Shown here piece by piece: positions 2,978-26,424 of a stretch of DNA of 30,898 nt. The stretch's first letter is position 1, and each line of letters starts with the position of its first letter. A program made the position numbers and the translations under genes. The notes beneath the pieces are model-generated. The model was not told the origin of the DNA. It ran no database searches and saw only the letters and a program-made list of their open reading frames with translations. Location of the stretch: the IMG/VR virus record IMGVR_UViG_3300032234_000816, positions 1 through 30,898 of that record, one strand, 5' to 3'. The stretch comes from a virus (Duplodnaviria > Caudoviricetes).

Positions 2978-3037
2978 TATTGTATTTCCAATACCCCATG
3001 CAATCTATTATACCCTATGCTCTGATATAATGTATAT

Positions 3038-4306: not shown

Positions 4307-4309
4307 TAG

Positions 4310-4381: not shown

Positions 4382-4385
4382 ATAG

Positions 4386-4459: not shown

Positions 4460-4463
4460 TTAG

Positions 4464-5957: not shown

Positions 5958-6888
5958 ATTTTATTTTTTCAGTAAAATATTCTGCAGCATGAGTATGCCA
6001 ATGTATTCCAAGATGTTTGTCATCTGCAGCGACAAGCCACATTTTTTTTATAATTTCATCTTTTATGTTTCCATGATAATCATCACATTCAGCAAAACTT
6101 CCATTAATAGAAATATAATTATCTTTGTTTAATCCACTATTATTATTTTTAAACATAAAATTAAGCAACATGTTTTCTGCAAAATTATGCCATGTACTAT
6201 AATAAAATTTTATATTTAATAAATTACAAATTGACTGAATTACATAAATTCCAGAAATATATTGTTCTATAGCTTGATTTCCAGAAATAAAGTATTCTGC
6301 ATCAGTGGGTGTTTTGATTATTTTGTCAAAATTTTCATGTTCGCCTGTTAAAAAATTTACAGTTAACACTGATGTAATTGCTTTTAAAGGAGCATCTAAA
6401 GATGTAGCATCATAACTTAAATTTTCTTTAATGTGTGAAAATCTAAAACAATCTGGCAATAGTGCAAAAACATATTTTGGCAATCCCACATTATTTAAAT
6501 AATATAAAAATGCATTTAATTGTAAATCTACGGATGCCCCAGCTATTCCTAAATTTGCAACTCTTAAACCAGTTTTATTTTGTAATATGTTTGGCCAAAT
6601 ATAATTTTGATCTAATCCTATTCCAAAGGTATTTGAACATCCTAAAGCAACAATGTCAGCTGGATTATTTTTAGTTAAATCTACAGCATCTCTAAACCCA
6701 AAATTATTAAGGTTATAATCATTAAGACGTTTATCTAAGTGTGTTTTTAATGTTACTGAAGAGTTTTTTATTGATCTGTTGTCATGTCCAAGTACCCTAA
6801 CATTCCATAAAAAAGAATGATCTTGATTAAAGTTATATGCATAATCTATACCATATAAAACATTATTTTTAGTATATGAATCTGCCAT
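5935..6888 (-). CDS. SGNH/GDSL-hydrolase-like protein
   Basis: N..GFR, ALGCSNTFGIG, NLGIAGAS and C-terminal D..HLG...H. Confidence 0.65.
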   Translation of the reverse strand: MADSYTKNNVLYGIDYAYNFNQDHSFLWNVRVLGHDNRSIKNSSVTLKTHLDKRLNDYNLNNFGFRDAVDLTKNNPADIVALGCSNTFGIGLDQNYIWPNILQNKTGLRVANLGIAGASVDLQLNAFLYYLNNVGLPKYVFALLPDCFRFSHIKENLSYDATSLDAPLKAITSVLTVNFLTGEHENFDKIIKTPTDAEYFISGNQAIEQYISGIYVIQSICNLLNIKFYYSTWHNFAENMLLNFMFKNNNSGLNKDNYISINGSFAECDDYHGNIKDEIIKKMWLVAADDKHLGIHWHTHAAEYFTEKIKYDNTWNK

Positions 6889-6958
6889 CTTTTTTCTTTC
6901 TTATTTTTTTTATTTTTCTAAAAAAATTATAAATATAATATTGTATTTTTATCTTCAT

Positions 6959-7168
6959 TTATGCGTCTTTTCTCCAATGCATAAACGATTTAATATAAAC
7001 AGCAGCATATGCTACAGCCATTGCAATAAACCCATACTGGTTAGTTGCTAAAGCATAAGCAATCCAGAGACATTCGTTTACACAAAGAATGAGCCATCCC
7101 CAGATAGTTTTGCGACCTACCAAAAATATTCCAGTTACACCAATAGCTGCAAGAACCCAAGACCACAT
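6959..7168 (-). CDS. Small three-helix membrane protein (PnuC/SemiSWEET-half-like)
   Basis: 69 aa, three hydrophobic segments, WGW and LWIAY motifs. Confidence 0.55.
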   Translation of the reverse strand: MWSWVLAAIGVTGIFLVGRKTIWGWLILCVNECLWIAYALATNQYGFIAMAVAYAAVYIKSFMHWRKDA

Positions 7169-7307
7169 TATTTATCACCTTGCTTAGGTATCATAGATTC
7201 ACATCTTGAGCAATAATCATATACCAACCTAGTATAAGGACAAGATCCAGCATACTCTAGTTTGTGCCCAAATATCTTACATGAAGAATATCTTAATATG
7301 TTATTAA

Positions 7308-7529
7308 TCATTTAATTTCGTTTTGTCCTCTTGCTATAGCAGCACAAACTTTAAAAGCTGCTTTAGTTCTACGGCTTTTCATAAACCCTAGTCTTTGCCA
7401 TACTGGTACAGTAGCCTCAATATCAAGTGCTATTTGTTCTCTAATTTCTTTTACAGTAGTGATGATTAAGTCCATAACATAAGCTTTTTGGTTATCATCA
7501 AGATCTTTAGTCCACCCAGTTTTTCCCAT
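7308..7529 (-). CDS. Hypothetical protein
   Basis: 73 aa ORF with leaderless ATG after TGATATGAT. Confidence 0.65.
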   Translation of the reverse strand: MGKTGWTKDLDDNQKAYVMDLIITTVKEIREQIALDIEATVPVWQRLGFMKSRRTKAAFKVCAAIARGQNEIK

Positions 7530-7582
7530 GTACCTATCATATCATAAAATCAACGGTACTGCAAATATGGTATGATTAGTAT

Positions 7583-7747
7583 ATGTATGAATGCGATCAT
7601 AATTTAGTACCAATAGTTTATGGATATATGTACGGCGATATTATTGATAAGATAAATAATAATGAGATTATTTATGGAGGAATTAGAAAGCTGGCAGGTG
7701 AGGCAGACTGGTTTTGTACTAGATGTCTTGAGGATGTGCATCTTTAG
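7583..7747 (+). CDS. Small Cys-containing protein, 54 aa (not in ORF track)
   Basis: MYECDHNLVPIVYGY...WFCTRC; leaderless after TGGTATGAT; stop overlaps the next start. Confidence 0.65.
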   Translation: MYECDHNLVPIVYGYMYGDIIDKINNNEIIYGGIRKLAGEADWFCTRCLEDVHL

Positions 7748-8754
7748 TGGAATCAATATTTATATCAATAGCTGCATGTAAAGAAGAGTTTTTAGTACAA
7801 ACAATAAAAAGCGCTATTGCAAATTCATCAGACCCAGAACTATTATATTTTGGAATATGTAATATGGTTATAGATGAAGAAGACTATGTTTCAGATCCAA
7901 TATTTGAATTAAATAATATTAACTTAGTAGAAATAAAATATAAAGAGCCTCTTGGAACTGGAGTAGGTAGACTACTTTCTTCTCTTATGGCTGACTATGA
8001 CCATAAATATTTTTTGCAGGTTGATGCCCATACAATTTTTACAAAAAACTGGGACTCTTTATTAAAAAAAAGATATGAACAACTATTAGAGTTATATGAT
8101 AAGCCAATAATAAGTACAAGCCCATCATGGTGGGCTGAAGGTCCTAACAAAGAAGTAATGCTGTTTGATAATCCTAAAGAAATAGTTGACCCATACAACT
8201 TTGAAAGGTATCAAGAGAACTGTACCTTGGAATTTAGAAATAATAAAAATGCATCAAATAAAACCATGAATGATAATGGTGATGATTTATATAGTGTGTA
8301 TGGGTTTGTAGAGGGTTGTGATGCTAAATGGGAAGAAGATGAAATCTTTAAAGAACATGGATTAATACACGCTGCATTTTTATTTTTTAATTTTAGTTTC
8401 TTATCTGATTTATTATCTGACCCATATAATCCTTGGGATGGAGATCAAAACAATATGTCATTTAGAGCTGGTACTAGAGGTTATAGAATGTTCACCATTA
8501 GGGAATCATGTGTATGGTCTAAGAATAAAATAAGAGAAAATAAGTTAATTTCTGAATATGATTGGAGAAACTGTGACAAAGGAAGTATCTTTAATTATTA
8601 TTACGAAAAAGCAAAAACTCACCAAATTAACATGTTCACTGGAGAATATCTAGGATACTGGGGAGCACCAACAAAAGAATCAATAGTAAGTTATGAATCT
8701 TTATTAGGATTTAAATTTATAGATAGCTTCATTAGCAACAAGAACAATAGATAA
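7747..8754 (+). CDS. GT60-like (Skp1 GlcNAc-transferase-like) glycosyltransferase
   Basis: SIFISIA, G.GVGR, FLQVDAHT.F..NWD and SFRAGTRGY motifs. Confidence 0.75.
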   Translation: MESIFISIAACKEEFLVQTIKSAIANSSDPELLYFGICNMVIDEEDYVSDPIFELNNINLVEIKYKEPLGTGVGRLLSSLMADYDHKYFLQVDAHTIFTKNWDSLLKKRYEQLLELYDKPIISTSPSWWAEGPNKEVMLFDNPKEIVDPYNFERYQENCTLEFRNNKNASNKTMNDNGDDLYSVYGFVEGCDAKWEEDEIFKEHGLIHAAFLFFNFSFLSDLLSDPYNPWDGDQNNMSFRAGTRGYRMFTIRESCVWSKNKIRENKLISEYDWRNCDKGSIFNYYYEKAKTHQINMFTGEYLGYWGAPTKESIVSYESLLGFKFIDSFISNKNNR

Positions 8755-13689: not shown

Positions 13690-13989
13690 TCAAATGTCAT
13701 CGTTGATGTCAACAGGGTCCAAGATGTATCCGCTTTCTAACATCCACTCTACTACATCGTCATAGTGTTGCTCTGAACCATACTCTAGGCTAAAGCCCTT
13801 ACCTGCGGCAACTGCCTCAACTAGACCTGTCCATACAGTGTCAAGATTTACATCTGCGTGATATGACTCATCATCTAGTACATCTACAATGGTGTTCCAT
13901 GTCCATAGCCAGACCATAGGTAGGCCTAGTTCTGTGCCACGTAAGATCTCTAGACATTTGTGTAGTTTATCTCTATCTGCCGTTTTCAT
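13690..13989 (-). CDS. Hypothetical acidic protein
   Basis: Start MKTADRDK with GAGG RBS and ATGA overlap with the upstream stop. Confidence 0.7.
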   Translation of the reverse strand: MKTADRDKLHKCLEILRGTELGLPMVWLWTWNTIVDVLDDESYHADVNLDTVWTGLVEAVAAGKGFSLEYGSEQHYDDVVEWMLESGYILDPVDINDDI

Positions 13990-14612
13990 TTTGCCTCTTC
14001 CTTTGGTGTGTTCATCAATTCTAGCACTGGCCACTGACATTTAGGGCAGACCAACTCATTGTGCTCTTCCATGTATAAGTCATTAGGGTCCTCTGCATGC
14101 ATGTAGTCGCACTCTTGACATTTCCAATTGTATTCCATGCCGTCAAGTTGTTCACCTCTGAGGAACTCACATTCCCCACCCCAACCTGTTTCTTCTTCAT
14201 ATGTTAAAGTAAATAACAAATCAGGGTACTGAGATGATAGATTAATTAAAGCCTCATCTGGAATTCCCCAAGGGGATTCAAATGTGTAATGAATTGCGTA
14301 AGACTCACCATTAGGAGCCTCATCTTGTAAATTAACACTGCTTGCATCCCACTTAACACCCCAGTTAAAGTTATTCCATTTGTACCAGTCATTGCCATTA
14401 TCAGACTGTTGAAGTGGATATGTATCTAGATCAGTAGGCGCTATGATATTCCAGTAAGAGAAGATAGGGTTCTCAGTTAGTTTGACCTCTACCTCGTTTG
14501 TCTCCCAATCAAGGACGGGAACATAGATAGGCTTACCTACCTCATACTTTAATTTAAGTACAGATGACTTTGGACCTTCTACAGTTAGTCCGTTATATAC
14601 CCAGTTTGGCAT
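13986..14612 (-). CDS. DUF1281/YubB ferredoxin-like-domain protein with C-terminal zinc ribbon
   Basis: MPNWVYN, WY.W...NWGVKWD, FESPW; CQEC...CPKC. Confidence 0.7.
   Translation of the reverse strand: MPNWVYNGLTVEGPKSSVLKLKYEVGKPIYVPVLDWETNEVEVKLTENPIFSYWNIIAPTDLDTYPLQQSDNGNDWYKWNNFNWGVKWDASSVNLQDEAPNGESYAIHYTFESPWGIPDEALINLSSQYPDLLFTLTYEEETGWGGECEFLRGEQLDGMEYNWKCQECDYMHAEDPNDLYMEEHNELVCPKCQWPVLELMNTPKEEAK
14018..14039 (-). promoter_or_regulatory. PafBC/RecA-NDp-type promoter (inside CDS)
   Basis: TGTCAG-N10-TAGAAT upstream of ATG 13989. Confidence 0.7.
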
Positions 14613-14661
14613 GGTGTTTTCTTTCTACTTGGTGGTTTATATTAATAATACAGGAATGCTA

Positions 14662-14904
14662 TTAGTTTGTCAACTTAGCACGATCAGCAATAGCAAATGC
14701 TAACTGGTATGTTAATTCATATACCTTGGCATAAGCGTCAAGCTGACCTTCATGGTACTTACCTTCTGGGTTATAGCGATTGTTACCCCAGGCCTCCTCA
14801 GCCTCTAGCATTAGGCCTTTAAGTTTGCCATGCAAGATGTCTGTGCCTGACTCTCCAATATCCACAAGGTACTGTAGGTGAGGTGGTAGTTTAGTTGTGT
14901 TCAT
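14662..14904 (-). CDS. Hypothetical protein
   Basis: 80 aa ORF with GGAG RBS, in operon. Confidence 0.7.
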   Translation of the reverse strand: MNTTKLPPHLQYLVDIGESGTDILHGKLKGLMLEAEEAWGNNRYNPEGKYHEGQLDAYAKVYELTYQLAFAIADRAKLTN

Positions 14905-15073
14905 CTATATACTCCAATAGGTGTTCGCAGGTAGCGATTGCTCCCTCGTAATAGGCGTCTGATTCAAAGTACTCATCATCAGGAATTTCAACTCCTTCAC
15001 GTGCGTCCTCTAGATCTTGCTCCAATGAGATTCTGTGAATTTTTATGTATTCTCTTAATGTATTTAGGTCCAT
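14891..15073 (-). CDS. Hypothetical protein
   Basis: Leaderless after TTGATA-17-TATACT (15080-15108); YYEGAI resembles YHEGQL of the next gene. Confidence 0.7.
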   Translation of the reverse strand: MDLNTLREYIKIHRISLEQDLEDAREGVEIPDDEYFESDAYYEGAIATCEHLLEYIDEHN

Positions 15074-15076
15074 ATA

Positions 15077-15265
15077 TCAAGTATAGTGGCTCTCACCAAT
15101 AATATCAAGGTGATGTTCTGTGACTTCCGTCACATCATATCTGTTTATCCTAATAATCTTAGGCTGGTCACAGATACAGTTGGGTTGAATCACCAGGCTA
15201 TTAGTAGTTGTGATTTCAAAAAGGGTATCACAATTAGTACAAATATATTCATGCTTAGTCCACAT
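15077..15265 (-). CDS. Small zinc-ribbon-like protein
   Basis: HEYICTNCD..FE and CIC; coupled to upstream 52 aa ORF 15265-15423. Confidence 0.65.
   Translation of the reverse strand: MWTKHEYICTNCDTLFEITTTNSLVIQPNCICDQPKIIRINRYDVTEVTEHHLDIIGESHYT
15119..15134. promoter_or_regulatory. CRP-family box
   Basis: TGTGA-CTTCCG-TCACA centred 53.5 bp upstream of the leaderless ATG at 15073. Confidence 0.7.
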
Positions 15266-15422
15266 TAGTCAAAGTACCCTTCTGCCCATAGGCCTTGCAA
15301 GAATGTAACTGTGTTATGAAGGTTTGTATGTAGCCATGGATCATCGTCAAAGTTGACGGTAGTTAGAGCAGACTCAACTGCTAGAGTCATAGCATCTAAC
15401 TCTTCTTTATCATAACCTAACA

Positions 15423-15584
15423 TTACTCTCCCCAATATTGCATAATAGTATTCATAGTGATATGGAGATTACAATCGCAAGGGTCTCCCCCCATGTTCTC
15501 CTCAAATTCAAAGTGCGATAGGTTGTCCTCATAAATTTCCATTACGAGTTCTGATATTGTGTATGGTTTGTAGGTGGTAGTCAT
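15423..15584 (-). CDS. Hypothetical protein
   Basis: MTTTYKPY start directly after TTGCTT-17-TAAAAT (15592-15620). Confidence 0.65.
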   Translation of the reverse strand: MTTTYKPYTISELVMEIYEDNLSHFEFEENMGGDPCDCNLHITMNTIMQYWGE

Positions 15585-15709
15585 GATATTAATTTTACAG
15601 GAATCTGCGAAAAAAAGCAAGTCCTCTTAATAAAAGAATCTGTGAGTATTTATCTTAGTTCTTAAATGTCCAATTTGTCCAATTTTGCTCGGGGCCCCAT
15701 TTACGCTTG

Positions 15710-15783
15710 CGATCTGTATGGGACTTGAACCCACGACCTCTACCGTGACAGGGTAGCGCTCTAACCAACTGAGCTAACAGACC
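15710..15783 (-). tRNA. tRNA-Asp(GUC)
   Basis: GGTCTGT/ACAGATC acceptor, CTACC/GGTAG stem, loop CTGTCAC, discriminator G. Confidence 0.93.
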
Positions 15784-15786
15784 AGA

Positions 15787-15813
15787 GAGCAGTTTTACAT
15801 CATGCTCAGGATT
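15787..15813 (-). ncRNA. Small H-type pseudoknot repeat, copy 1
   Basis: ATC-CT-GAGCA-T-GAT-GTAAAAC-TGCTC between the DUF932 stop and tRNA-Asp. Confidence 0.6.
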
Positions 15814-15819
15814 ATTTTA

Positions 15820-16836
15820 TTATACCAGTTGCAAGGTATTCTGTACAACCTTTAGCAAGCGATTTTTTTCTGCGTTGATAGCAGGATCAAATCCACTTGC
15901 ACTTGCCAACATGCTTTCATTGTTACCACCACGTGATGTGCGGTACCAATCAAGACGTTCTGTAAGAGCGTTAAATGCTCCCCACGCATTACCAGCGATC
16001 ATGCCATTGAATTCGCCAGTGTAAATATCGTTGATGATATCTACCTTGTTCTCCCACTTCTTGATTGAACCCTTAGAATCCTTTTCAGGCTTAGGATAAG
16101 CAGCAAGAATGATATCGTAGAAAGTCTTAGCGCTGACTTCCTTCTCAATCATAGCCTTAGCCATGAGATCAAATTCATCCATGTAAGCATTAGCAAGACC
16201 AAGAGTCTCACGTGCGATCTGCACCTTGCCATTGGCAGTCTGCGTGTGACGAATCTTGAATGATTGCTTAACGCCACCCTTGCGCTTCTTCTGATTAAGT
16301 GCAAGATTGAGAGTGTTAGCGCACACTACACGCACTGGTGTTATGCTTGCTTGAATTGCGATTGAGCCATCGTGTGATGTGTTGATGAGCAAATAAGTCT
16401 TTACCTTATCTGCAACACCGTTAGGGTCAAGAACGGTCTCACGCTCTAGTGCTAGGGCACCAAAGACAACACGTCCACCCTTGATTGAGCCAGCAGTCTC
16501 CCAACGGCCTCCACCGTCTAGAATGTTATCGCCAAATGAGAATAGATCCTCATTCTGCAATACGTGATAGCGCTCACCTACGACACCAAGAATATCTGTC
16601 TGTGTGTTTTCTGTAGGATTGGTACGTACTACGTACTGATATTCCTTATCTGATGTAAGGTGTGATGGAATTGGCATATCTTCAAGACGAACATTCCAAC
16701 CGTTGAGGTTTGCAGCCTCTAACATTTCTGTGGTGGTTTTTTCTTCTGTAAAGACGGTACCCAATCCATGCCAAGCAGGTTCACGGAAAGATGCGAAAGA
16801 GGTCTTACCGTTTTGTATTTCTAGGTCATGTGCCAT
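15820..16836 (-). CDS. DUF932/DUF945 (TIGR03299-like) phage/plasmid protein
   Basis: MAH, PAWHGLG, ETAGS..GG, NTSHDGS, TPVRVVCANTL, IRHT and WGAFNA.TE. Confidence 0.9.
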   Translation of the reverse strand: MAHDLEIQNGKTSFASFREPAWHGLGTVFTEEKTTTEMLEAANLNGWNVRLEDMPIPSHLTSDKEYQYVVRTNPTENTQTDILGVVGERYHVLQNEDLFSFGDNILDGGGRWETAGSIKGGRVVFGALALERETVLDPNGVADKVKTYLLINTSHDGSIAIQASITPVRVVCANTLNLALNQKKRKGGVKQSFKIRHTQTANGKVQIARETLGLANAYMDEFDLMAKAMIEKEVSAKTFYDIILAAYPKPEKDSKGSIKKWENKVDIINDIYTGEFNGMIAGNAWGAFNALTERLDWYRTSRGGNNESMLASASGFDPAINAEKNRLLKVVQNTLQLV

Positions 16837-16868
16837 GAGTTTTCTCCTTATTGTTTGTTGATATTTTA

Positions 16869-16890
16869 AGTGTACCAGTATGGACTGACA
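16869..16890 (-). promoter_or_regulatory. PafBC/RecA-NDp-type promoter
   Basis: TGTCAG-N10-TACACT upstream of the DUF932 gene. Confidence 0.78.
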
Positions 16891-16956
16891 AATGCAAATC
16901 AGGATAAGTAAAAATGGGAAAAATTGGACATTATTTTAATCCCTCGTAAAGACACG

Positions 16957-16972
16957 TGTGATCTTGGTCACA
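16957..16972. promoter_or_regulatory. CRP-family box
   Basis: TGTGA-TCTTGG-TCACA. Confidence 0.75.
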
Positions 16973-17007
16973 TGGGCTCGGGGCCCCATTTGTGCGGGGA
17001 GCTGGAT

Positions 17008-17036
17008 GAGCAGTTTATAGATATGCTCAGATCTAT
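17008..17036 (-). ncRNA. Small H-type pseudoknot repeat, copy 2
   Basis: TAGAT-CT-GAGCA-T-ATCTA-TAAAC-TGCTC. Confidence 0.7.
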
Positions 17037-17055
17037 TAGTAGCCCCCTACTAAAT

Positions 17056-17226
17056 TTACTTAGAGGTCTTCACCATTGCAAAACGATGTGCACCGTTTGC
17101 AAGTTTCAATGAAACTCTAGTTAGTTTGTTGTTGATTGGTGTGAAGTTAGTGATTCGTCCAGTGACACCTGTCTTGCTTGTTGTGAATAGATCGCCTAGT
17201 TGATATGTGTATCCGTTTAGTGACAT
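17056..17226 (-). CDS. Small SH3-like beta protein, 56 aa (not in ORF track)
   Basis: MSLNGYTYQLGDLFTTSKTGVTGRI; paralogue of 17896-18060; AAGGA RBS. Confidence 0.8.
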   Translation of the reverse strand: MSLNGYTYQLGDLFTTSKTGVTGRITNFTPINNKLTRVSLKLANGAHRFAMVKTSK

Positions 17227-17266
17227 TTGTTTTATTTCCTTTTCTGTAGTGGTGGTTTAATTGTGT

Positions 17267-17294
17267 GAGCAGTTTTACGACTTACTCAGGTCGT
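17267..17294 (-). ncRNA. Small H-type pseudoknot repeat, copy 3
   Basis: ACGAC-CT-GAGTA-A-GTCGT-AAAAC-TGCTC. Confidence 0.7.
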
Positions 17295-17328
17295 TTGGGT
17301 TCAGGACTTTAAGTTGCCCCCCAAAGTT

Positions 17329-17757
17329 TTAGAGATAGCGGGCTACTGCGTTGTATGTAGAAGTATTTACAACTTCTTCATCTGTCATCTTTAGAATACG
17401 AATTGCGTTTGCAATTTCGTTTTTCTGTTCTAAGTATGAGTGTTGGTGCATAACTACATAGTCCTTAGTTGGCTCTTTTGGCAAGTCTGACTCTGTAAGA
17501 CCTGTTAGGTCAAAGTCAATGTTAAGTGTTCCGTTCCATGAACGAAAGTTTGTACGGAAGTTTTCTGCCTTCTTGACATTTGCAATAGCATAAGCAATAA
17601 CTTCCTTCTGATACTTCTCATAAGCCTTCTTATACTTTGCTTCGTTGGCTTCTTGTGATGCGTAGTCTGACTCTAGTTTAGCAAGTGAGCCTTCTAGTGC
17701 CTTGATTACCTTTGGTGTTGCGATCTTTACTGAGATTGCTTTTCCTCTTGTTGCCAT
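17329..17757 (-). CDS. Hypothetical protein
   Basis: 142 aa ORF with its own promoter. Confidence 0.8.
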   Translation of the reverse strand: MATRGKAISVKIATPKVIKALEGSLAKLESDYASQEANEAKYKKAYEKYQKEVIAYAIANVKKAENFRTNFRSWNGTLNIDFDLTGLTESDLPKEPTKDYVVMHQHSYLEQKNEIANAIRILKMTDEEVVNTSTYNAVARYL

Positions 17758-17792
17758 GTGGTGTTCTCGTTTCTGTAGTGGTTGATATTTAT

Positions 17793-17814
17793 ATTATAGT
17801 AGATGGGACTGACA
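17793..17814 (-). promoter_or_regulatory. PafBC/RecA-NDp-type promoter
   Basis: TGTCAG-N10-TATAAT. Confidence 0.78.
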
Positions 17815-17895
17815 TTTACCCCGTAGGGTGAGAGTTCTTACTTACGACATTGGGCGAGAACACTCTCTAAACTGCCCCTGTTTCGTTGGACTAGA

Positions 17896-18060
17896 TTACT
17901 GCGCCTTCCAAGTTGTCCAGCGCACCTGACCATTTACATCTAACTTAACACGAACTGTGTCCTTAGCGGTAGGGGCGATCTCCAAGATTGTGCCTGTGAC
18001 CTTTGACTTCTGTGAAGTATAGAGGTCGCCTACCTTGTAAGTTGATACTGCTACTGTCAT
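17896..18060 (-). CDS. Small SH3-like beta protein
   Basis: MTVAVSTYKVGDLYTSQKSKVTGTI; AAGGAG RBS; promoter TTGATA-17-TACACT (18092-18120). Confidence 0.8.
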   Translation of the reverse strand: MTVAVSTYKVGDLYTSQKSKVTGTILEIAPTAKDTVRVKLDVNGQVRWTTWKAQ

Positions 18061-18151
18061 TTCTTTCTCCTTTGTTTTTGTTGATATATTAAGTGTAGCA
18101 AAAAATCTAAGAAATATCAAATCCATTTCCTAGAAATCTCACTATTTGGAC

Positions 18152-18167
18152 TGTGATCTAGGTCACA
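18152..18167. promoter_or_regulatory. CRP-family box
   Basis: TGTGA-TCTAGG-TCACA. Confidence 0.75.
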
Positions 18168-18240
18168 CTATTTATTTTTTAGGATGAACAATAATAGCCC
18201 TATTAAGGATAAGACTACATATATGTCCATAGTTATCCCC

Positions 18241-18963
18241 TCACTTTTTCGTGGCTGAGAATACAATGTCGCTCTTTGAGTATACACACAATGAGCAAGA
18301 TACGCAAGCGGAGCCCTGTTGAGAGATAAGGGGAATAGCCTTCTTGTTCTCAGGGCACTTAGCACCAGGGCGCCCAATCATCTCTTTCATGTCTGCCTGC
18401 CCTACGGCAAAATTCTTAGCAAGATATGCAAGCTTTACGCCATGATCTTTTTTCAGGGTAAGGCCAATAGACTTATTCTCGCTATCTGTAGAATAGTATA
18501 AAGATAGATTAGCAATATCCTTAAGAATAAGCGCTGCAGAGTTAACACGTGTATATACCCAGAATTGAATATCTGGCTGTTCTTCAATAACTAGTCGCCA
18601 TGCCTGTGCATAGTCATCGCTAAAGAAATCTCCGTCCCAGTGGATACGAAATAGCATAGGTGCCTCACGCTTTACGCATTCTGATTTGAACTCTGCTACC
18701 ATTTCTGAAAGTAGAGTATACATACCCTGCAGATCTTCATCCTTGAGCAATGCCCAGTTGTGCAATAGATTTTTCTTTACACTAGGAAATACCTTTTCTA
18801 ACTTTCCTGCATAGCATACACTTTCACACACACTAGTAGCGCCAGGGCATGAGTAAGCTTTTCCTGCGGGAAGACCAAAGGTATTAGCCATGCTAGCCTG
18901 CTTACCATTAGGGGTAACAATATTTGCTACTTTACGATCTTTACTTCTAATTAACTTAGTCAT
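18241..18963 (-). CDS. GP88-family Cys-rich protein (possible Fe-S)
   Basis: FGLPAG, CPGAT..C...CYA, FRIHWDGDFFS, FWVYTR and CP...C..C..C. Confidence 0.75.
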   Translation of the reverse strand: MTKLIRSKDRKVANIVTPNGKQASMANTFGLPAGKAYSCPGATSVCESVCYAGKLEKVFPSVKKNLLHNWALLKDEDLQGMYTLLSEMVAEFKSECVKREAPMLFRIHWDGDFFSDDYAQAWRLVIEEQPDIQFWVYTRVNSAALILKDIANLSLYYSTDSENKSIGLTLKKDHGVKLAYLAKNFAVGQADMKEMIGRPGAKCPENKKAIPLISQQGSACVSCSLCVYSKSDIVFSATKK

Positions 18964-19114
18964 TAAGGGGGCCTCTTTCTTTCTTTAATTGTAACATGTA
19001 GGACTGACATTTCTTTCTGTCATATTTCTTTTTATTTGGAATAGCGGAGGCAGCATTAGATCTACGTAACTCCATAAGGATACGTAACTCTTCAGGGGTC
19101 TTTTTCTGGCTCAT
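18956..19114 (-). CDS. Small basic protein, 52 aa (not in ORF track)
   Basis: MSQKKTPEELRILMELRRSNAASAIPNKKKYDRK; leaderless after TTGATA-17-TAAGAT (19121-19149). Confidence 0.7.
   Translation of the reverse strand: MSQKKTPEELRILMELRRSNAASAIPNKKKYDRKKCQSYMLQLKKERGPLND
18988..19009 (-). promoter_or_regulatory. PafBC/RecA-NDp-type promoter (inside CDS)
   Basis: TGTCAG-N10-TACAAT upstream of the GP88-like gene. Confidence 0.75.
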
Positions 19115-19159
19115 ATAATAATCTTAGCAGATATGGGGAAAAATATCAAATCTCTTAAT

Positions 19160-19175
19160 TGTGAGGTAGATCACA
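19160..19175. promoter_or_regulatory. CRP-family box
   Basis: TGTGA-GGTAGA-TCACA centred 53.5 bp upstream of the leaderless ATG at 19114. Confidence 0.75.
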
Positions 19176-19196
19176 TGGGCCTCGGGCCCCAGACTT

Positions 19197-19430
19197 TTAG
19201 TCTAAGTAAACGTACCAGTCAACTTCTTCATCAAATGCAAAGTCAACTGTTGTTGTTTCACCAAAGTCGTTGCTAACTTCAATACTGTACACGTCACCAG
19301 TAGAATCAACGTCAATAGAAATTACTTCAACGATATCATCGTCAAAAGAAATAAGATCACCAATCTCTAATGCATCTGCAGTTAGTACGTCAGCTTTTAT
19401 GAGTTCCATAACTTTTATTGTATCACTCAT
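19197..19430 (-). CDS. Small acidic beta-barrel-like protein
   Basis: MSDTIK start with GAGGAGG RBS; ADALEIGDLI motif. Confidence 0.75.
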   Translation of the reverse strand: MSDTIKVMELIKADVLTADALEIGDLISFDDDIVEVISIDVDSTGDVYSIEVSNDFGETTTVDFAFDEEVDWYVYLD

Positions 19431-19431
19431 T

Positions 19432-19716
19432 TTAGTATTCCTCCTCTGGCAGCCAAAAGTGTAGGTGGTGTTGCTGAATAATTGCTCTTGCAGGTGCCTG
19501 TGTTGAGCCACGATAGGTAATCTGAAAGTCACCAACCATAGGCATATCAATCATGCGATCATAGTCCTCTTCATAGTAAGCGTCAATAGCCTCAATACAT
19601 GGTGCGACCATTTCTGCAGGTACTGGAGGATAGTGATTACCCTTTAGGTGATAAAGAATCTGTGTTTCCAAATCCAATACTGTATCCTGGATACCTAACG
19701 CTGTTACTGATCCCAT
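19432..19716 (-). CDS. Hypothetical phage protein
   Basis: HL.GNHYPPVP motif; coupled to upstream 45 aa ORF 19716-19853. Confidence 0.75.
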   Translation of the reverse strand: MGSVTALGIQDTVLDLETQILYHLKGNHYPPVPAEMVAPCIEAIDAYYEEDYDRMIDMPMVGDFQITYRGSTQAPARAIIQQHHLHFWLPEEEY

Positions 19717-19852
19717 TACTTATTTCCCCAATCTTCCATTACTCCGTCAATAGCATCCTGTATATCTGCATTAAGCAAATCTATTTCATCTTCCGTTAAG
19801 TCTGCAATAAAACTTCTTGTAGGGTTATGCTCCCAGAGAATTAAGCCTTCCA

Positions 19853-20062
19853 TTATTTTACACTTACCTTTCCGTCACGAAAAAATACCTTGGTGTACAT
19901 TTTACCCATAGGGTCTGACATATTGTAGGTTGCATAGTCTTTAGCATCGCCAAAGTCTACACACTTATTCCATGCATTTACAACTTCTAGCATATTTGCA
20001 CTTCGCAGGGTATTGACAAGGTTGCCGTCATATGAAGTGGTGAGTGAGTAGTTATATTCCAT
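19853..20062 (-). CDS. Hypothetical protein
   Basis: 69 aa ORF in a coupled operon. Confidence 0.7.
   Translation of the reverse strand: MEYNYSLTTSYDGNLVNTLRSANMLEVVNAWNKCVDFGDAKDYATYNMSDPMGKMYTKVFFRDGKVSVK
19899..19920 (-). promoter_or_regulatory. PafBC/RecA-NDp-type promoter (inside CDS)
   Basis: TGTCAG-N10-TAAAAT upstream of ATG 19853. Confidence 0.7.
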
Positions 20063-20327
20063 TTATTCTGTCCAATCTAAAGTAAGTTCTGAGTCTAACA
20101 TCTCTGAGTAGTGAACGTCAATTCCACAACTCCAGCAATAGAATCCATCTATATGTATATTTTCATTACAAGCCACGCATAGGGCTTCAATCATATTACC
20201 CAAAGTATTCACCCATATTCTTTTCGTCTGCCCAATCACGATAGTGTGGGTCGCATAGTTCACTAGGCTTAATAGATATTGCTGAGATACTCATACGCTG
20301 AGCAAAACACACTTTACATTCGTTCAT
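20063..20327 (-). CDS. Two small Cys-rich ORFs (20196-20327 and 20063-20194)
   Basis: MNECKVC...LCDPHY with GAGG RBS; MIEALCVAC...YCWSCG. Confidence 0.6.
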
Positions 20328-20358
20328 AGGGGCTACCTCTTTCTGTTGATATATTTTA

Positions 20359-20487
20359 ATCCTACACTATGGGGCTGACAAGGGCAACTCTTAAAGTACT
20401 TTAATCTCAAAATATGAGAAAATTTAGGTGTGAGTAATATCACAACGTAAAGCCCTGTGGATAACCTGTGGATAAAGCCTCGGCCCC
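20359..20487 (-). promoter_or_regulatory. Regulatory module: PafBC-type promoter, CRP box, two DnaA boxes, GGGGCCGAGG
   Basis: TGTCAG-N10-TAGGAT 20359-20380; TGTGA-N6-TCACA 20429-20444; TGTGGATAA 20456-20464 and 20467-20475; motif 20478-20487. Confidence 0.8.
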
Positions 20488-20506
20488 AAAATTTAGTTGA
20501 AATTTC

Positions 20507-20534
20507 AAGCAGTTTTAAATCATGCTCAGGATTT
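20507..20534 (-). ncRNA. Small H-type pseudoknot repeat, copy 4
   Basis: AAATC-CT-GAGCA-T-GATTT-AAAAC-TGCTT. Confidence 0.7.
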
Positions 20535-20552
20535 CCCGTTAGCCATGGTTGA

Positions 20553-20684
20553 CTATTTTTTATTTAGTAAATCATTTTTCATTTCACGCAGATCAGCTTT
20601 TAAATCTTGCCACATTAAACTTAAGCAAGCAAGCACTCCAAGAAATAAAATTACTTGTACAACTGTTGTGATAATTCTGCTCAT
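20553..20684 (-). CDS. Small membrane protein, 43 aa (not in ORF track)
   Basis: MSRIITTVVQVILFLGVLACLSLMW; AAGGAG RBS. Confidence 0.7.
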   Translation of the reverse strand: MSRIITTVVQVILFLGVLACLSLMWQDLKADLREMKNDLLNKK

Positions 20685-20694
20685 TGTTTTCTCC

Positions 20695-20922
20695 TTATAG
20701 ATTCTTATTGTATCGTGTGCCAGATTGCATGAGTTCTAACTCTTGTGCTTCTGTCTTTGTGCAGGCTGCATAAAATTTATCAAATTTGAAATTTGGATTA
20801 TCAGCCTTGAACATGTCTGAAAATTCATCTATTAAATCTTCAAAAGTTACCGTTTCAATTTCATCTTTGAAAGTGTTTAGAATTTCTGCAATAACTACAT
20901 AGTCTTTTCTAGTCATTGGCAT
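20695..20922 (-). CDS. Hypothetical phage protein
   Basis: MTRKDY..IA...DNPNF..DKF..AC pattern; AGGTGG RBS. Confidence 0.75.
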   Translation of the reverse strand: MPMTRKDYVVIAEILNTFKDEIETVTFEDLIDEFSDMFKADNPNFKFDKFYAACTKTEAQELELMQSGTRYNKNL

Positions 20923-21128
20923 TATTCTGCCACCTTTAGCGTTGCATATGAATTGCCTTCATTGAGTGTGTCAAGCATTGGCTGAATTCGTGGAGCAAGC
21001 AATTCTTTTAGCATTGACTCAAGCATAGTAACTTGGTCAATTGTTGGCAGTGCAAGCAATTGCTGAGCGATTGGATGAGTTTCATCTAACTCAGTTACGA
21101 ATTGGAGAGAGTGGTAGATCTTTGTCAT
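20922..21128 (-). CDS. Hypothetical protein
   Basis: MTKIYHSL start coupled to the upstream stop (TAATG). Confidence 0.7.
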   Translation of the reverse strand: MTKIYHSLQFVTELDETHPIAQQLLALPTIDQVTMLESMLKELLAPRIQPMLDTLNEGNSYATLKVAE

Positions 21129-21310
21129 TATAGTGTAGCCTTTCCTCTTAGTGTTCCAGTAATTCCTAAAGTGTCGCAAGCGACTTTGACTGATACGCCA
21201 ACTGGTAAAGTGTTGGGGTATTCATTGACGAATTGTGCAACTGCACCTTTTGACGGTAGAGAGATTGTTTTAACTTCTCCGCTGAAAGTTTCTAGTTTGA
21301 TCTTGTACAT
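21128..21310 (-). CDS. Small protein, paralogue of 23574-23753
   Basis: MYKIKLETFSG...VKVACDTLGITG.L.G; AGGTG RBS. Confidence 0.75.
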   Translation of the reverse strand: MYKIKLETFSGEVKTISLPSKGAVAQFVNEYPNTLPVGVSVKVACDTLGITGTLRGKATL

Positions 21311-21311
21311 A

Positions 21312-21515
21312 TTATGCACCTACCTTTACTGCAACGGTACGAAACGAATTAGTGAATCCAGTAGCAGGCTTAACCTCTACAAGATAAGACTCACAACCCT
21401 CATACCATACGGCTTTTGGGTGTGGCTCTGCACTTACGATTTTACCCTTAAGCGTTGCAGAATTGTATTCTGTTCCCACTAGTAGGGTCTGGACATTGTA
21501 TACATTGGCTGACAT
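21312..21515 (-). CDS. Small beta-rich hypothetical protein
   Basis: AAGGTGG RBS; first gene after a promoter. Confidence 0.75.
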   Translation of the reverse strand: MSANVYNVQTLLVGTEYNSATLKGKIVSAEPHPKAVWYEGCESYLVEVKPATGFTNSFRTVAVKVGA

Positions 21516-21549
21516 ATTGCCACCTTCTTTTCTTTTTGGTTATATATTT

Positions 21550-21625
21550 ATTTTAGCAGATTGGACTGACATTAGCCAATCCAAATTTGGACATTTAGGA
21601 CATTCTAAGTGTGACCTTGGTCACT
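21550..21625 (-). promoter_or_regulatory. Regulatory module: PafBC-type promoter, GGACATT direct repeat, CRP-like box
   Basis: TGTCAG-N10-TAAAAT 21550-21571; GGACATT at 21589 and 21598; TGTGA-N6-TCACT 21610-21625. Confidence 0.78.
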
Positions 21626-21801
21626 TACTTAGTTAAGTACCAATCAGTCCACATTGGCAGACGCTCAGGATCATGATCGCCATAATAGCGAGAGATATTG
21701 TTTTCACATTCCATGCAGAATGTAAATTGCTCATCTCCAACTTCTGAGATAGCAGGGACGAATGGCTTATGCTCTTGGCATATTGTGTTTAGTGAGTTCA
21801 T
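21625..21801 (-). CDS. Small Cys-containing protein, 58 aa (not in ORF track)
   Basis: MNSLNTICQEH...FCMECE; only gene behind the 21856 promoter. Confidence 0.65.
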   Translation of the reverse strand: MNSLNTICQEHKPFVPAISEVGDEQFTFCMECENNISRYYGDHDPERLPMWTDWYLTK

Positions 21802-21855
21802 GAGAACTACTTTCTTTGCGGATTTCTTTACCGCTTGTTTTTCTTTATACCTAGA

Positions 21856-22047
21856 ATTATAGCAGGGGGGTCTGACATTGACTCATATTATGTCAAGTAG
21901 ATTATCACCATAAACTAGGGCAAAACGGACATTTGGGAAATGTGAAGTGCGTCACATATATGACTGGTCCTAGGTTGGGGGGTCTAAGACTGGTCATCTT
22001 AACCCTGTGGATAAGCCTGTGTATACTTTAAGTCTAAAGGCCCGAGG
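21856..22047 (-). promoter_or_regulatory. Regulatory module: PafBC-type promoter, GGACATTT, CRP box, DnaA box(es), GGCCCGAGG
   Basis: TGTCAG-N10-TATAAT 21856-21877; TGTGA-N6-TCACA 21941-21956; TGTGGATAA 22006-22014; TGTGTATAC 22018-22026; motif 22039-22047. Confidence 0.8.
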
Positions 22048-22064
22048 TTTTTTAGACCTTTAGT

Positions 22065-22631
22065 TTATTTTATTTTGTCTAGAATTTTTTCTAATTCTTT
22101 TAGTTGTTCTAGATTAAGGTGATCTAGTTGAATAGCTTTTTCAAATTCAAAAACATCTTTCATTGTTCTAACATCTCACTTTCTTTTTCATTTAGCATTT
22201 CAAGAATTATTGTTAAGTCTTTCTCAGAAAGAAAAGTTCTAGCAGCACCCCATAGAAAAGTTCTAGAGTGTTCACCATATTGCTTTTCAGCAAGGGCATT
22301 AATTGTTTTGATCATTTCATATTTTTTATCCATTACTTTACCTCCTTATATAGGTAGTCCCACGCCTGACGGCAGATTAAAATTGAATTGCAATTGTCGC
22401 AACAAATAGCCCCTTCAGGGTTAAAGTTTACGTCAAACGCATCTACATAGAAAGTGTTTTTTCCGCATACGGAATTAAGTGCATAAATAGCGCTCATTAG
22501 TTGTCCTCATTTTCTTTTTGAGAATGGATAAGTTCATTTTGCTTTTTAGCATTTGCAAGAATTGCCATAGCGTCAATGCGTGAGAATGCACGCTTATCAT
22601 TTACGAATTTTTGGTATTCTTTCATGTTCAT
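22065..22631 (-). CDS. Four translationally coupled small ORFs (22497-22631, 22333-22497, 22160-22333, 22065-22163)
   Basis: Each start overlaps the previous stop (TAATG/ATGA) with purine-rich RBS-like leaders. Confidence 0.65.
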
Positions 22632-22813
22632 TAGTTTACCTCCTTGATTGAAGTTTCAAGAACAACCCAACCATCTGAAACTTTTTCTTCAAGATAGTCG
22701 TTAATTTCTTTTTCTGATAGGAAAAGTCCACCTAGGTTAGTAGATGAATAATTATATTTAGGAAATTCTCCAGACCAACGGAGATTGTACATTTTATTAT
22801 TTAGTGAATTCAT
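22631..22813 (-). CDS. Hypothetical protein, first gene of the leftward arm
   Basis: 60 aa ORF with AAAGGA RBS. Confidence 0.7.
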   Translation of the reverse strand: MNSLNNKMYNLRWSGEFPKYNYSSTNLGGLFLSEKEINDYLEEKVSDGWVVLETSIKEVN

Positions 22814-22866
22814 TTGAATTCCTTTCTTTAAGAGGCTTACTTCTTTTTCAACCTTCTATACCTAGA

Positions 22867-23092
22867 AGTGTAACACAGGGGTCTGACATCTACTAGCCAG
22901 TAATCATACCAAAACGGACATTTTGATTTGTGACCTACGTCATGTGGATAACTTGAGCGTAAAATGGGATGTGACGTACATCACGTGGATAAGCCTGTGG
23001 ATAACTTTTGGGGCCCGAGGTTTTTGTGTGGTGTAGATCACATGCGACACGCCGTGTTTGGACTTGACTTTTTGGGTTTTGTGTGCTAGTAT
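22867..23092. promoter_or_regulatory. Divergent control region
   Basis: Leftward TGTCAG-N10-TACACT 22867-22888; CRP-like boxes 22929, 22970, 23027; DnaA boxes 22943, 22984, 22996; GGGGCCCGAGG 23010; GACAC 23046; rightward TTGACT-17-TAGTAT 23064-23092. Confidence 0.8.
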
Positions 23093-23972: not shown

Positions 23973-24155
23973 ATGGGTATATTAGACAACTTTGAAAACT
24001 GGCTTGAGGTAGATGAGCAAGCATGGGCAAACCTCTCAACAAAAACTTTTTCAGAAACGGTATGTAAGGATTGCGAAGCTAAGACCGAATCAACTCCTAT
24101 TGTAGAAACAGACAATATGGGTAGAGACATTCTCTGGCAGGACAAAGAATTTTAA
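23973..24155 (+). CDS. Hypothetical protein
   Basis: MGILDNFENW start 8 nt after TATAAT; longer start in the ORF track is unlikely. Confidence 0.6.
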   Translation: MGILDNFENWLEVDEQAWANLSTKTFSETVCKDCEAKTESTPIVETDNMGRDILWQDKEF

Positions 24156-24754
24156 GGAGCTTCAAACCGTGAGTACCACTTATAGGTACCATAAGGGATA
24201 ACTGTAGAGTCAACCCACCAGTCTTCATGTGGTAATCTACAAACTAGCGAGTATCCAAGATTATTAAGGATCTCTCTTTGTGCATCACGTAAGCTCGCAT
24301 TCTTATAATGAATAAGATATTCGTGCTCAAATGAAATAACACTAAATCTATATTGTGACAATGGCAATGCAATCAATCCATTTAGTGGCTGACCAATTGG
24401 TGCTCTAGGACGACCACCTTGATCCATAGGACTTTCAATATCAATTTGAAGATAGTCTATCTGCTTTGGAAAGTTATTTTCTTCAAAATACTTTAGGTAG
24501 TTAAATTTGGTCGCATCTTCAAGTAGGCATGGATTCTTTCTTACACTATTGTAACTGTCTGCAAGCTCTTGATCAAGATCAAAGCCTATGCCTTTCCAGT
24601 CATACTCTGTTTCCATCTTATATGTAGTGTTGTTGATAATTGGATCTGCTGACCCCATCTCTACATAGTATCCATTTTTCTTGTATCCTAGAATGTCAAG
24701 TGCAAATGCATCTGATGAATGAATAAAGTCTCTTTTATCTATAAATTGTTCCAT
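24152..24754 (-). CDS. FkbM-like methyltransferase
   Basis: YYVEMGSADP..NNT, WKGI, IDYLQIDIE, ISFEH and EDWWV. Confidence 0.8.
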   Translation of the reverse strand: MEQFIDKRDFIHSSDAFALDILGYKKNGYYVEMGSADPIINNTTYKMETEYDWKGIGFDLDQELADSYNSVRKNPCLLEDATKFNYLKYFEENNFPKQIDYLQIDIESPMDQGGRPRAPIGQPLNGLIALPLSQYRFSVISFEHEYLIHYKNASLRDAQREILNNLGYSLVCRLPHEDWWVDSTVIPYGTYKWYSRFEAP

Positions 24755-25325
24755 CTGTCTCTTCCACTTCTCTAAATAAATCTTGGTTTAGTATTACTGG
24801 GCTTTCTTTTGAACCTTGAACAAAGCATGTAGAAAAATATCTTTCATCATTGCTAGTAACTGGAAGATTTGAATGAAGTATGTTTCCACCATGCATAACT
24901 AAAGATCTTGCCTTTGGCTTATGGACTATATTCAACTCAGGGTATTCAAGCTCTCCACCTTCGTATTCATCGTTATAATAAATACATATTCCAAAACGAA
25001 TATGATATGGTTCTTCATAGAGCCAGTAGTCTCTGTGAGTTTGCATCTTTGCTTCTTTTTTATATCTTTGAAGTGCAACGTTACCAACATAAAGCAAATT
25101 CTCAAAAAGGTCTTTAACCTTCTTATCTATTTCATTAAAGACTAAAGGTCTTTCTCCGTTATATTGTTTGCCATAGAAAAATCCATTTTTATAATCTTCA
25201 GAGATGGATATCCACCAATCTTCTTCTTTTAATGATTTTGCAAACTCTAGAACCTGCTGCTGTTCTTCTTCGGTAATAAAGTCTTCAACTTCATAAATGT
25301 CAGGGGATATCTTATTGACTTTCAT
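24735..25325 (-). CDS. 2OG-Fe(II) oxygenase (prolyl-4-hydroxylase-like)
   Basis: HRD, YYND.YEGGEL, distal H and RY motifs. Confidence 0.85.
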   Translation of the reverse strand: MKVNKISPDIYEVEDFITEEEQQQVLEFAKSLKEEDWWISISEDYKNGFFYGKQYNGERPLVFNEIDKKVKDLFENLLYVGNVALQRYKKEAKMQTHRDYWLYEEPYHIRFGICIYYNDEYEGGELEYPELNIVHKPKARSLVMHGGNILHSNLPVTSNDERYFSTCFVQGSKESPVILNQDLFREVEETDGTIYR

Positions 25326-25532
25326 TTATTCCTCTGACTCTAGATCCCACATACGAATATCTGTAACACCTTTGCGAACAGCTTCTGCTTCGTATATATC
25401 TTTTGCATCAACTACAACCTTAACCTTATCAAAATCCACATTGCCTAAAGCTTCATAAACATTTATGCCAGTATGCTGCATATATGATTCTTCAACTACA
25501 GGCTTAACTGCTTTATATGTGTATTTAGGCAA
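25326..25532 (-). CDS. Hypothetical protein
   Basis: 68 aa ORF with GAGG RBS, in operon. Confidence 0.7.
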   Translation of the reverse strand: MPKYTYKAVKPVVEESYMQHTGINVYEALGNVDFDKVKVVVDAKDIYEAEAVRKGVTDIRMWDLESEE

Positions 25533-26424
25533 GTAGGTTCGCCTCTTTCATCTTTGCATAAAGTCCAGATACGATTAGTGTCATAGAAGGCTTGCTCTGC
25601 TCAATCTGCTGATCAATCTGTGCCTTATCCATTCCAGCTTGCTCACAAAGCAAACGGTTTGTTTCATTAATTGTTTCTACCATAAAGTTAATTACTTCTT
25701 GCTCGCTCATTTTTATATCCTTTTCTATTTCTTTTATTATATCATTAACTCTCATCTTGGCCAATTCAAATTGTTCTGAAGATGAATCATTATATATTGC
25801 TTTTCTATTATACCTTAAAGCAGATACAGCAGTGGTACCCGTTCCACCAAATATGTCTGCAACGGTATCTCCTTCTTTGGAAAAAAACGGTATAAGAAAA
25901 TCAGACAAGGCTATAGGAAAAGCATCGGCTACAAACAGCCCTGCATTATGATATTTGAGCAAATCATCATCTATGATGTTCCATGGTATGTCAACTACTA
26001 AACTTTTTAAGCCTTTTATTGGATATTTAAAATTTGTATTTTTACGTATTTGAAGGATGAGGTTTGTTTGTCTTCCATCATGTACTAAATGATAATCTCT
26101 TTCATATGTCCAGAAAAGAGTTTTAAAGATTATAAGGTTTGGACTGTTTGTAATTTGTGAAATAATATTAAAAGAGTTCTCAGTGTTGGGAAGCAAAAGT
26201 AAAATATTGCCATCTTCAGAAAGAGCTCTACCCATAGACTCTACAGACTTAATTATTGCATTATGGTATTCTTCTTCATCTGCTGTATTATTGAGCTGCA
26301 AAGTGATTTCTCCACCATACTTTTTAGGTGTATAAAAAAATGGGGGATGAACCAAAAATAGATCTACGCTATTAGGCTCTAAAAAATCTTCTCTAGCATC
26401 TTCACAATAAAACTTAACATACAT
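25525..26424 (-). CDS. N4/N6 DNA methyltransferase (beta class) with C-terminal extension
   Basis: SVDL...HPPF (motif IV) precedes FP..L and DIFGGTGTT (motif I). Confidence 0.8.
   Translation of the reverse strand: MYVKFYCEDAREDFLEPNSVDLFLVHPPFFYTPKKYGGEITLQLNNTADEEEYHNAIIKSVESMGRALSEDGNILLLLPNTENSFNIISQITNSPNLIIFKTLFWTYERDYHLVHDGRQTNLILQIRKNTNFKYPIKGLKSLVVDIPWNIIDDDLLKYHNAGLFVADAFPIALSDFLIPFFSKEGDTVADIFGGTGTTAVSALRYNRKAIYNDSSSEQFELAKMRVNDIIKEIEKDIKMSEQEVINFMVETINETNRLLCEQAGMDKAQIDQQIEQSKPSMTLIVSGLYAKMKEANLLA

Follow-up and report, generated by a model that had tools for sequence, protein, structure and literature searches.

The question raised by the stretch of DNA analysed here, a virus record fragment of 30,898 bases and 36% G+C (IMG/VR record IMGVR_UViG_3300032234_000816; hereafter the window), is whether a phage has placed promoters of its own within reach of a DNA-damage regulator of its host. 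Nine copies of the motif TGTCAG-N10-TANNNT lie on its minus strand, with the TGTCAG box at about −26 and the TANNNT hexamer at −10. For the bacterial promoters that respond to PafBC, the parts of PMC8635444 drawn on here give the consensus tGTCgg(N10)tA(N3)T, assign the reading of the GTC triplet to PafB residues R46 and R50, place PafC on the SigA region-4 residues that normally contact the −35 element, and report no −35 consensus among the mycobacterial members. In the portions used of two further sources, the motif is equated with RecA-NDp (PMC8223512) and single-stranded DNA (ssDNA) is given as the activator of PafBC (PMC11804915). The exact RecA-NDp/PafBC layout that a preliminary description had ascribed to the nine sites equals this consensus. 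They appear to belong to a real and strongly conserved promoter class of an actinophage clade, for which host PafBC is the most likely reader, acting as one input among several.

That description had listed nine minus-strand copies with a constant spacer, each ahead of a gene start and three of them within coding sequence, and all of these points were recovered. Nine sites compare with a mean of 0.41 and a maximum of 2 in 100 dinucleotide shuffles, while TGTCAG alone is at chance level (18 copies against a shuffle mean of 14.9, with 18 reached in 25 of the 100 shuffles), so that the signal is the pairing of TGTCAG with TANNNT. When spacers of 5 to 21 nucleotides (nt) were compared, only that of 10 nt was enriched, with its nine matches, the remaining combinations of spacer and strand giving 0–2 each. 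On the coding strand, the −10 hexamer is followed at 24–54 nt by an ATG in all nine cases (at 22813, 21801, 21515, 20327, 19853, 18963, 17757, 16836 and 13989, in the order of the list below), and seven of the nine downstream starts pass a simple ribosome-binding-site filter. The sites, given with the open reading frame (ORF) that each precedes, and the two genes named in the earlier description as lying downstream, with which the Pfam assignments agree, are as follows.

22867..22888, minus strand: site with an extended −10, preceding the 60-amino-acid ORF 22631-22813.
21856..21877, minus strand: site with an extended −10 and a perfect TATAAT, preceding ORF 21625-21801; motif in 30/39 orthologues.
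21550..21571, minus strand: dual site with TTG at 18 nt and an extended −10, preceding ORF 21312-21515; motif in 47/58 orthologues.
20359..20380, minus strand: dual site with TTGCCC at 17 nt, preceding the 43-amino-acid ORF 20196-20327.
19899..19920, minus strand: −26-only site within ORF 19853-20062, preceding the 45-amino-acid ORF 19716-19853; motif in 6/8 orthologues.
18988..19009, minus strand: site with an extended −10 within ORF 18956-19114, preceding gp88; synonymous constraint in 29/30.
17793..17814, minus strand: −26-only site with a perfect TATAAT, preceding the 142-amino-acid ORF 17329-17757; motif in 38/76 orthologues.
16869..16890, minus strand: dual site with TTGCAT at 17 nt and an extended −10, preceding the DUF932 gene; strict motif in 72/80 orthologues.
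14018..14039, minus strand: site with an extended −10 within ORF 13986-14612, preceding the 99-amino-acid ORF 13690-13989; the least conserved, in 3/16 orthologues.
15820..16836, minus strand: DUF932 / TIGR03299 gene (Pfam).
18241..18963, minus strand: GP88-family gene (PF17338, E 7e-52).

Conservation was followed in related phages gathered with the DUF932 protein of the window, which matched 424 IMG/VR loci, the best 80 of them (86–94% identity) being kept; several of these sit on complete genomes of 111–117 kb. The 80 loci are mutually related rather than independent, and the counts that follow overstate independence accordingly. The motif and its 10-nt spacer, which the earlier description had proposed to look for in relatives, recur in this set: on the strand of DUF932, 79/80 loci have one site or more and 71/80 have three or more. 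In total there are 596 gene-strand against 68 opposite-strand copies, other spacers giving 0–54 and single-base variants of the hexamer 1–24 on the gene strand. Sites with a strong −10 are confined, in the three complete relatives examined for this, to one arm of about 10 kb made up of small genes, and none was found near recA, dnaE, the helicase or the structural genes in the complete relatives scanned. Five other genes of the arm have the strict site in no orthologue. The embedded site ahead of gp88 seems to be under DNA-level constraint inside coding sequence, as its Cys-Gln pair is written TGT CAG in 29 of 30 distinct sequences (background codon use about 0.19) and one orthologue retains the box in a different reading frame. 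The 68 strict sites opposite the DUF932 strand perhaps represent a conserved divergent promoter.

The architecture of the promoters themselves was counted over 388 distinct phage sites from the relatives. A TTG at a distance from the −10 of precisely 17 or 18 nt is present in 144 of these and one at 13–16 nt in none, the TG of an extended −10 is present in 233, and 87 have neither; in the window the corresponding figures are three, six and two of the nine sites, six therefore being without a TTG at the canonical −35 distance. At the DUF932 promoter (upstream 90 nt), 73 of 80 relatives are dual, six have only the −35 and one only the −26 element, from which it follows that DUF932 would probably be transcribed without PafBC. 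The promoter of gene 18060 is dual in 35 of 77 relatives and −35 only in 41, as it is in the window, whereas the promoters of gene 17757 (76 relatives: 38 −26 only, five −35 only, 33 neither) and of gp88 (70 relatives: 38, nine and 23, respectively) show the −26 element without a −35 in many orthologues, so that the gp88 class would fit PafBC dependence better than that of DUF932. Orthologous promoters thus switch between −26 and −35 classes. The earlier proposal that such genes are wired to PafBC keeps its basis in the box layout and in the pafBC genes of the probable host family described below, but is too strong as worded given the DUF932 promoter; with so many sites carrying a −35 or an extended −10, and with orthologues swapping class, it is more likely that PafBC adds a second input than that it alone switches the genes on.

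These same figures also speak for a rival explanation, in which the sites are strong constitutive SigA promoters with a near-consensus and extended −10 and often a −35, and the box either contributes little or has some other host factor as its reader: the extended −10 and the correctly spaced TTG are frequent, and the box is lost in orthologues, as at gene 18060. This explanation is nevertheless unlikely, as the hexamer is near-invariant at a single spacing and is retained at synonymous positions, and 87 of the 388 sites have neither element. As to another host factor, G precedes the box in 1% of the sites in the 80 loci, unlike the reverse of the WhiA box GACAC. PafBC is, moreover, the only reader of GTC at that position named in the parts of the PafBC papers PMC8635444 and PMC8223512 used here.

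Whether a suitable reader exists in the host depends on which host is meant. Eight genome bins contain the DUF932 gene of the window phage, two of them actinomycete and six of unrelated taxa; because six of the eight are non-actinobacterial, the binning was treated as noise rather than as host evidence, and its use was limited to finding a way into a genome family. The family reached through the two actinomycete bins has genomes of 1.1–2.2 Mb, with rhodopsin in 35/41, and is probably the Nanopelagicaceae, small rhodopsin-bearing actinomycetes, although the link to the phage is weak. The phage tRNA-Asp, compared with 301 Actinomycetes, gives its best scores to genomes of 1.3–1.5 Mb. WYL genes are present in 61/61 genomes of this family, mostly as tandem pairs, and the pafB-pafC pair precedes tatC. 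One PafB matches that of M. smegmatis (7P5X) at E 4e-39 with RMFERDK intact, and R-x-FERDK, which holds the R46/R50 pair that reads GTC, is kept in all 12 genomes examined. Among 30 recA loci fetched from 34 full-length matches, 29 have GTC-N12-TANNNT within 260 nt upstream of recA. The two host features proposed for checking in the preliminary description, pafBC and the same box at recA, are thus both found in the family, the host itself being a deduced one.

The sites of this family also resemble those of the phage outside the box. The three bases that follow it are ACC, TGG, TCC or CCC in 260 of the 388 phage sites and in 23 of 61 host sites (hand count; about 4 expected). In 23 host sites examined (all 12 of genome G022 and 11 of the 18 of G037), seven strict sites stand 6–8 nt before a start codon, as expected of leaderless promoters, and the ORFs behind the sites (16 of 18 scanned, two orthologues having been dropped) include dnaN, an adenine methylase, DUF6504 twice, a DEDD exonuclease, a LysM protein and DUF3263, plus unrelated genes. 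In G022 (loci L180 and L177), the sites before the LysM and DUF6504 genes also have a TTG at 17-nt spacing, which indicates that dual −35/−26 promoters exist in the host family too.

A further explanation is that the phage sites are chiefly decoys, which in the many copies present during phage DNA replication would pull active PafBC-RNA polymerase away from host repair and defence genes. The 9–13 strict sites of one arm are comparable in number to those of an entire host genome (8–18 including chance matches), the arm is also dense in CRP-like and DnaA-like boxes, and PMC12848934, in the part available, cites Rafique 2025 for an effect of pafBC on mycobacteriophage resistance. All nine sites of the window, however, face genes at 24–54 nt before their starts, neither of which a decoy needs, and specific DNA binding by PafBC alone was not seen in vitro according to the part of PMC6789036 used, which would tie occupancy to promoter firing. 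A main role as decoys is accordingly judged very unlikely, while titration of PafBC could occur as a side effect.

A phage-encoded reader was the other possibility that the earlier description had set against host PafBC. Searches of five complete relatives detected no gene of the WYL, PafB-like, HTH_11 or sigma kind (WYL, sigma-70 region 2 and HTH_11 in 0/5 each), although a divergent small protein would be missed by such a search. PafB and PafC profiles gave nothing better than E 0.96 in 27,862 six-frame segments from the window, the 80 loci and three complete genomes, in a run whose only control was a distant helicase-WYL protein (E 5e-4 with PafB and 3 with PafC). An activator of the MotA/AsiA kind, or a phage WhiB, might still read TGTCAG, in which case the sites would be middle promoters merely resembling PafBC sites. 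Such an arrangement has a precedent in T4 (PMC8635444, as covered in the part used), and the phage motif is stricter than that of the host. WhiB, which in the parts used of PMC6802176 and PMC10202952 serves as an actinophage marker, is encoded in 5/5 complete relatives, most ORFs of the arm match no family in the window and the relative scanned, and ORF 22631-22813 has a weak match to HTH_17 (20.1 bits, below the cut-off of 27). WhiB is, however, also present in 3/3 Stanwilliamsviridae, Streptomyces relatives without the array; the ORF with the weak match could be scored in only 8/80 loci, in part owing to truncation of loci, and itself stands behind such a site; and the box, its spacing and the bases after it agree with the host's own sites. 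An activator of the phage's own is for these reasons considered improbable.

Host PafBC is thus held to be the probable reader, the nine sites being predicted SigA promoters in which TGTCAG, centred near −26, would provide a second, ssDNA-triggered input for small takeover genes, added to ordinary −35 and extended −10 recognition. Promoters with the −26 element only, of the gp88 and 17757 type, would be the most dependent on PafBC, whereas dual promoters of the DUF932 type would fire via the −35 element, or via the −26 element once PafBC is active; the two routes should be mutually exclusive at a dual promoter because PafC covers the residues that bind the −35. The arm would thus be strongly transcribed in damaged and undamaged cells alike, being on in calm cells and boosted by PafBC, and the trigger would be ssDNA arising from host damage or from the infection itself.

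It has to be noted that several observations weigh against this reading. The binding of PafBC, the activity of the promoters and their start sites are predictions from sequence, and since only 87 of the 388 sites are without both other elements, most could fire without PafBC. The regions of phage recA, dnaE and the helicase have no strong site, unlike a damage regulon. On the host side, the assignment is indirect, with the DUF932 bins non-actinobacterial in six of eight cases, and the tRNA-Asp match is only 83–85%, larger genomes tying at 74.3 bits, just below. The strict TGTCRG form occurs at only 11 of the 30 host recA loci, most of which have CGTC(A/G)G where the phage nearly always has T, and over five host genomes the strict motif barely outnumbers its reversed control (61 copies against 50). 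The array is missing from the Streptomyces Stanwilliamsviridae, whose host does carry the box at recA (PMC8635444, in the part used). Finally, the window is a 31-kb fragment, so that the absence of an activator holds for the relatives only, and most of the small ORFs are unannotated.

Regarding the genes of the window and of its clade, a contig of 109,519 bp carries proteins identical to those of the window phage, and one complete relative (140 ORFs of at least 70 amino acids scanned) encodes WhiB, RecA, DnaE, a primase, a helicase, Cas4, portal, capsid and tape measure proteins. Neither a tyrosine nor a serine integrase was detected in any of the five complete relatives. The small-gene arm may comprise the early genes, as suggested by the small size of the genes, by the two copies each of DUF932 and gp88 near the genome ends of the Streptomyces relatives, and by the position of gene 88 next to Pleft, an early promoter of cluster A mycobacteriophages (PMC5712189, in the part used). 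ORF 17329-17757 matches only unnamed viral clusters. The predicted structure of the DUF932 protein is confident (predicted local distance difference test score 91.5), but has no Foldseek match at E <= 0.001; its best VIA Z of 7.3 is confined to a helical part, no solved relative was found by sequence, and the Atlas returns only DUF932. The notion that this protein makes the activating ssDNA was dropped, as neither the Foldseek search nor the sequence search for a solved relative supports it. Its conserved residues W22, H155-D156-G157, R169, C172, N174, H197 and E293 may make up a site. Elsewhere, at 104-8754 and 24152-26424, the window has blocks of glycosyltransferase, methyltransferase, carbamoyltransferase, 2OG-Fe(II) oxygenase and DNA methylase genes, and tRNA-Arg, tRNA-Ile and tRNA-Met lie at 4309-4537.

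The following further elements were noted from the sequence.

19121..19149, minus strand: canonical −35/−10 promoter-like site without the GTC box, a second class.
Starts at 18120, 15620, 15108, 13712, 11859, 9736 and 9404: further canonical −35/−10 promoter-like sites without the GTC box.
15119..21956, plus-strand starts at 15119, 16957, 18152, 19160, 20429, 21610 and 21941: seven CRP/GlxR-like palindromes.
20456..23004, minus strand, starts at 23004, 22951, 22014, 20475 and 20464: five DnaA-box-like 9-mers.

In the relatives, the centres of the CRP/GlxR-like palindromes cluster at 52, 62 and 72–73 nt before the −10 of promoters of the −26 type, a helical-turn spacing that suggests co-activation. 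The words GGGCCCGAG and AATGTCC are repeated in the same intergenic blocks as the DnaA-box-like 9-mers. A repeat of about 29 nt, NNNC-CTGAGYA-x-GNNN..AAACTGCTC, lies on the minus strand of the window near 20535, 17295, 17036 and 15815. It occurs in 80/80 loci, with 340 gene-strand against eight opposite copies, and one copy stands directly 5′ of tRNA-Asp. Covariation is seen at three pairs of its stems, with 207, 212 and 169 of 213 sequences paired where shuffles give 120, 92 and 98, and the repeat with AAACTGCTC would fit an H-type RNA pseudoknot; it had no Rfam match, Rfam giving only tRNAs at gathering score.

Among cultured phages, 26 records were scanned for the strict motif, and 10 of them have at least one site and at most three, where chance would give 0.16–2.1 for six; no array was found in any of the 26. 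D29, TM4, Omega, Cjw1, ReqiPepy6, SparkleGoddess, SaltySpitoon and Terij, among others, have none, Terij being a Microbacterium phage whose genes around DUF932 are similarly ordered, and the main text of a D29 RNA-seq preprint makes no mention of recA, pafB or DNA damage. The sites listed for Dropshot, Phonegingi, Nicole72, Bxz1, PegLeg and Patience are these.

Locus L168: sites at 4786 and 10295.
Locus L171: sites at 1085 and 6603.
Locus L169: sites at 8922, 12363 and 17180.
Locus L200: site at 1501.
Locus L170: site at 6307.
Loci L202 and L204: site at 1501.

Microbacterium phage Dropshot has two (0.16 expected), the first inside ruvC, which stand before recE-recT and before ssb and are both kept in its close relative Phonegingi; Nicole72 has one before a DUF932 gene, with two looser siblings before other genes, and Bxz1 one at 31 nt before an ORF. 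In two of the well-placed cases the TA belongs to the TAA stop of the upstream gene. With counts near chance, these sites are to be taken as leads only. As a wider picture, it is tentatively proposed, with rather less than even confidence, that the takeover arm of an abundant, non-integrating lake phage clade answers to the host's ssDNA alarm, in that infection or sunlight damage would activate PafBC and thereby the phage genes, through promoters tuned by gain or loss of −26 and −35 elements, and that some cultured actinophages (Dropshot at recE-recT and ssb, Nicole72 at DUF932) may do likewise. The phages concerned probably have hosts among the most abundant bacteria of fresh water; if the proposal is right, ultraviolet damage could be coupled to viral output in lakes, and the hijacking of a WYL damage sensor would, if shared by cultured actinophages, be a general phage strategy that can be tested in the laboratory. 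Because one and the same gene can have a −26-only, a −35-only or a dual promoter in different relatives, these promoters form a natural test set for the competition between sigma adaptation and −35 recognition at a single promoter.

Compared with the bacterial PafBC/RecA-NDp promoters (PMC8635444, PMC11804915 and PMC8223512, in the parts used), the phage sites have in common the GTC hexamer, the 10-nt spacer and TANNNT, and their bases after the box match those of the probable host family. They differ in that they precede small genes of no assigned family rather than repair genes, have a stronger −10, carry a TTG −35 in 37% of cases, and are predicted promoters residing on a phage with no detected integrase. 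The literature searches made turned up no account of a phage with PafBC-type promoters, subscription journals and supplements being outside the scope of the search, which agrees with the preliminary description, whose author knew of none; the 2025 paper on pafBC and mycobacteriophage resistance could bear on this. The closest cultured DUF932 proteins, at 54–55% identity, are those of Streptomyces phages of the Stanwilliamsviridae (cluster BE/BK, e.g. Jay2Jay), which also share a GP88 about 50% identical, DUF932 and GP88 being the two arm proteins compared, the small-gene arm, WhiB and a large genome, but whose arm has TTG-type promoters and no TGTCRG-N10 array. The middle promoters of T4 (MotA/AsiA; PMC8635444, in the part used) are likewise a phage class with an upstream box in place of −35 recognition. 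T4, however, encodes its own activator, whereas none was found in the clade of the window phage, whose box copies the site of a host regulator.

Bacteria are known to employ WYL-domain sensors of ssDNA in DNA repair and to activate defences against phages. Damage-coupled control of phages is known through LexA, the host repressor of genes of Bacillus phage GIL01, of CTX phage and of tum in coliphage 186, and the promoter type described here is known from bacteria; use of PafBC by a phage was not found in print. An SOS-induced prophage switch was considered for the window phage and rejected, given the result for integrases in the five complete relatives and the absence from the window of the LexA box CGAAC-N4-GTTCG. 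The LexA-controlled phages likewise tie their expression to a host DNA-damage sensor via copied host sites, but they do so through release from a repressor and prophage induction, whereas the window phage would rely on an activator acting at many promoters. If host PafBC does read these sites, the phage would turn the alarm of its host into a booster of lytic growth and would represent the activator-based counterpart of the phages under LexA control.

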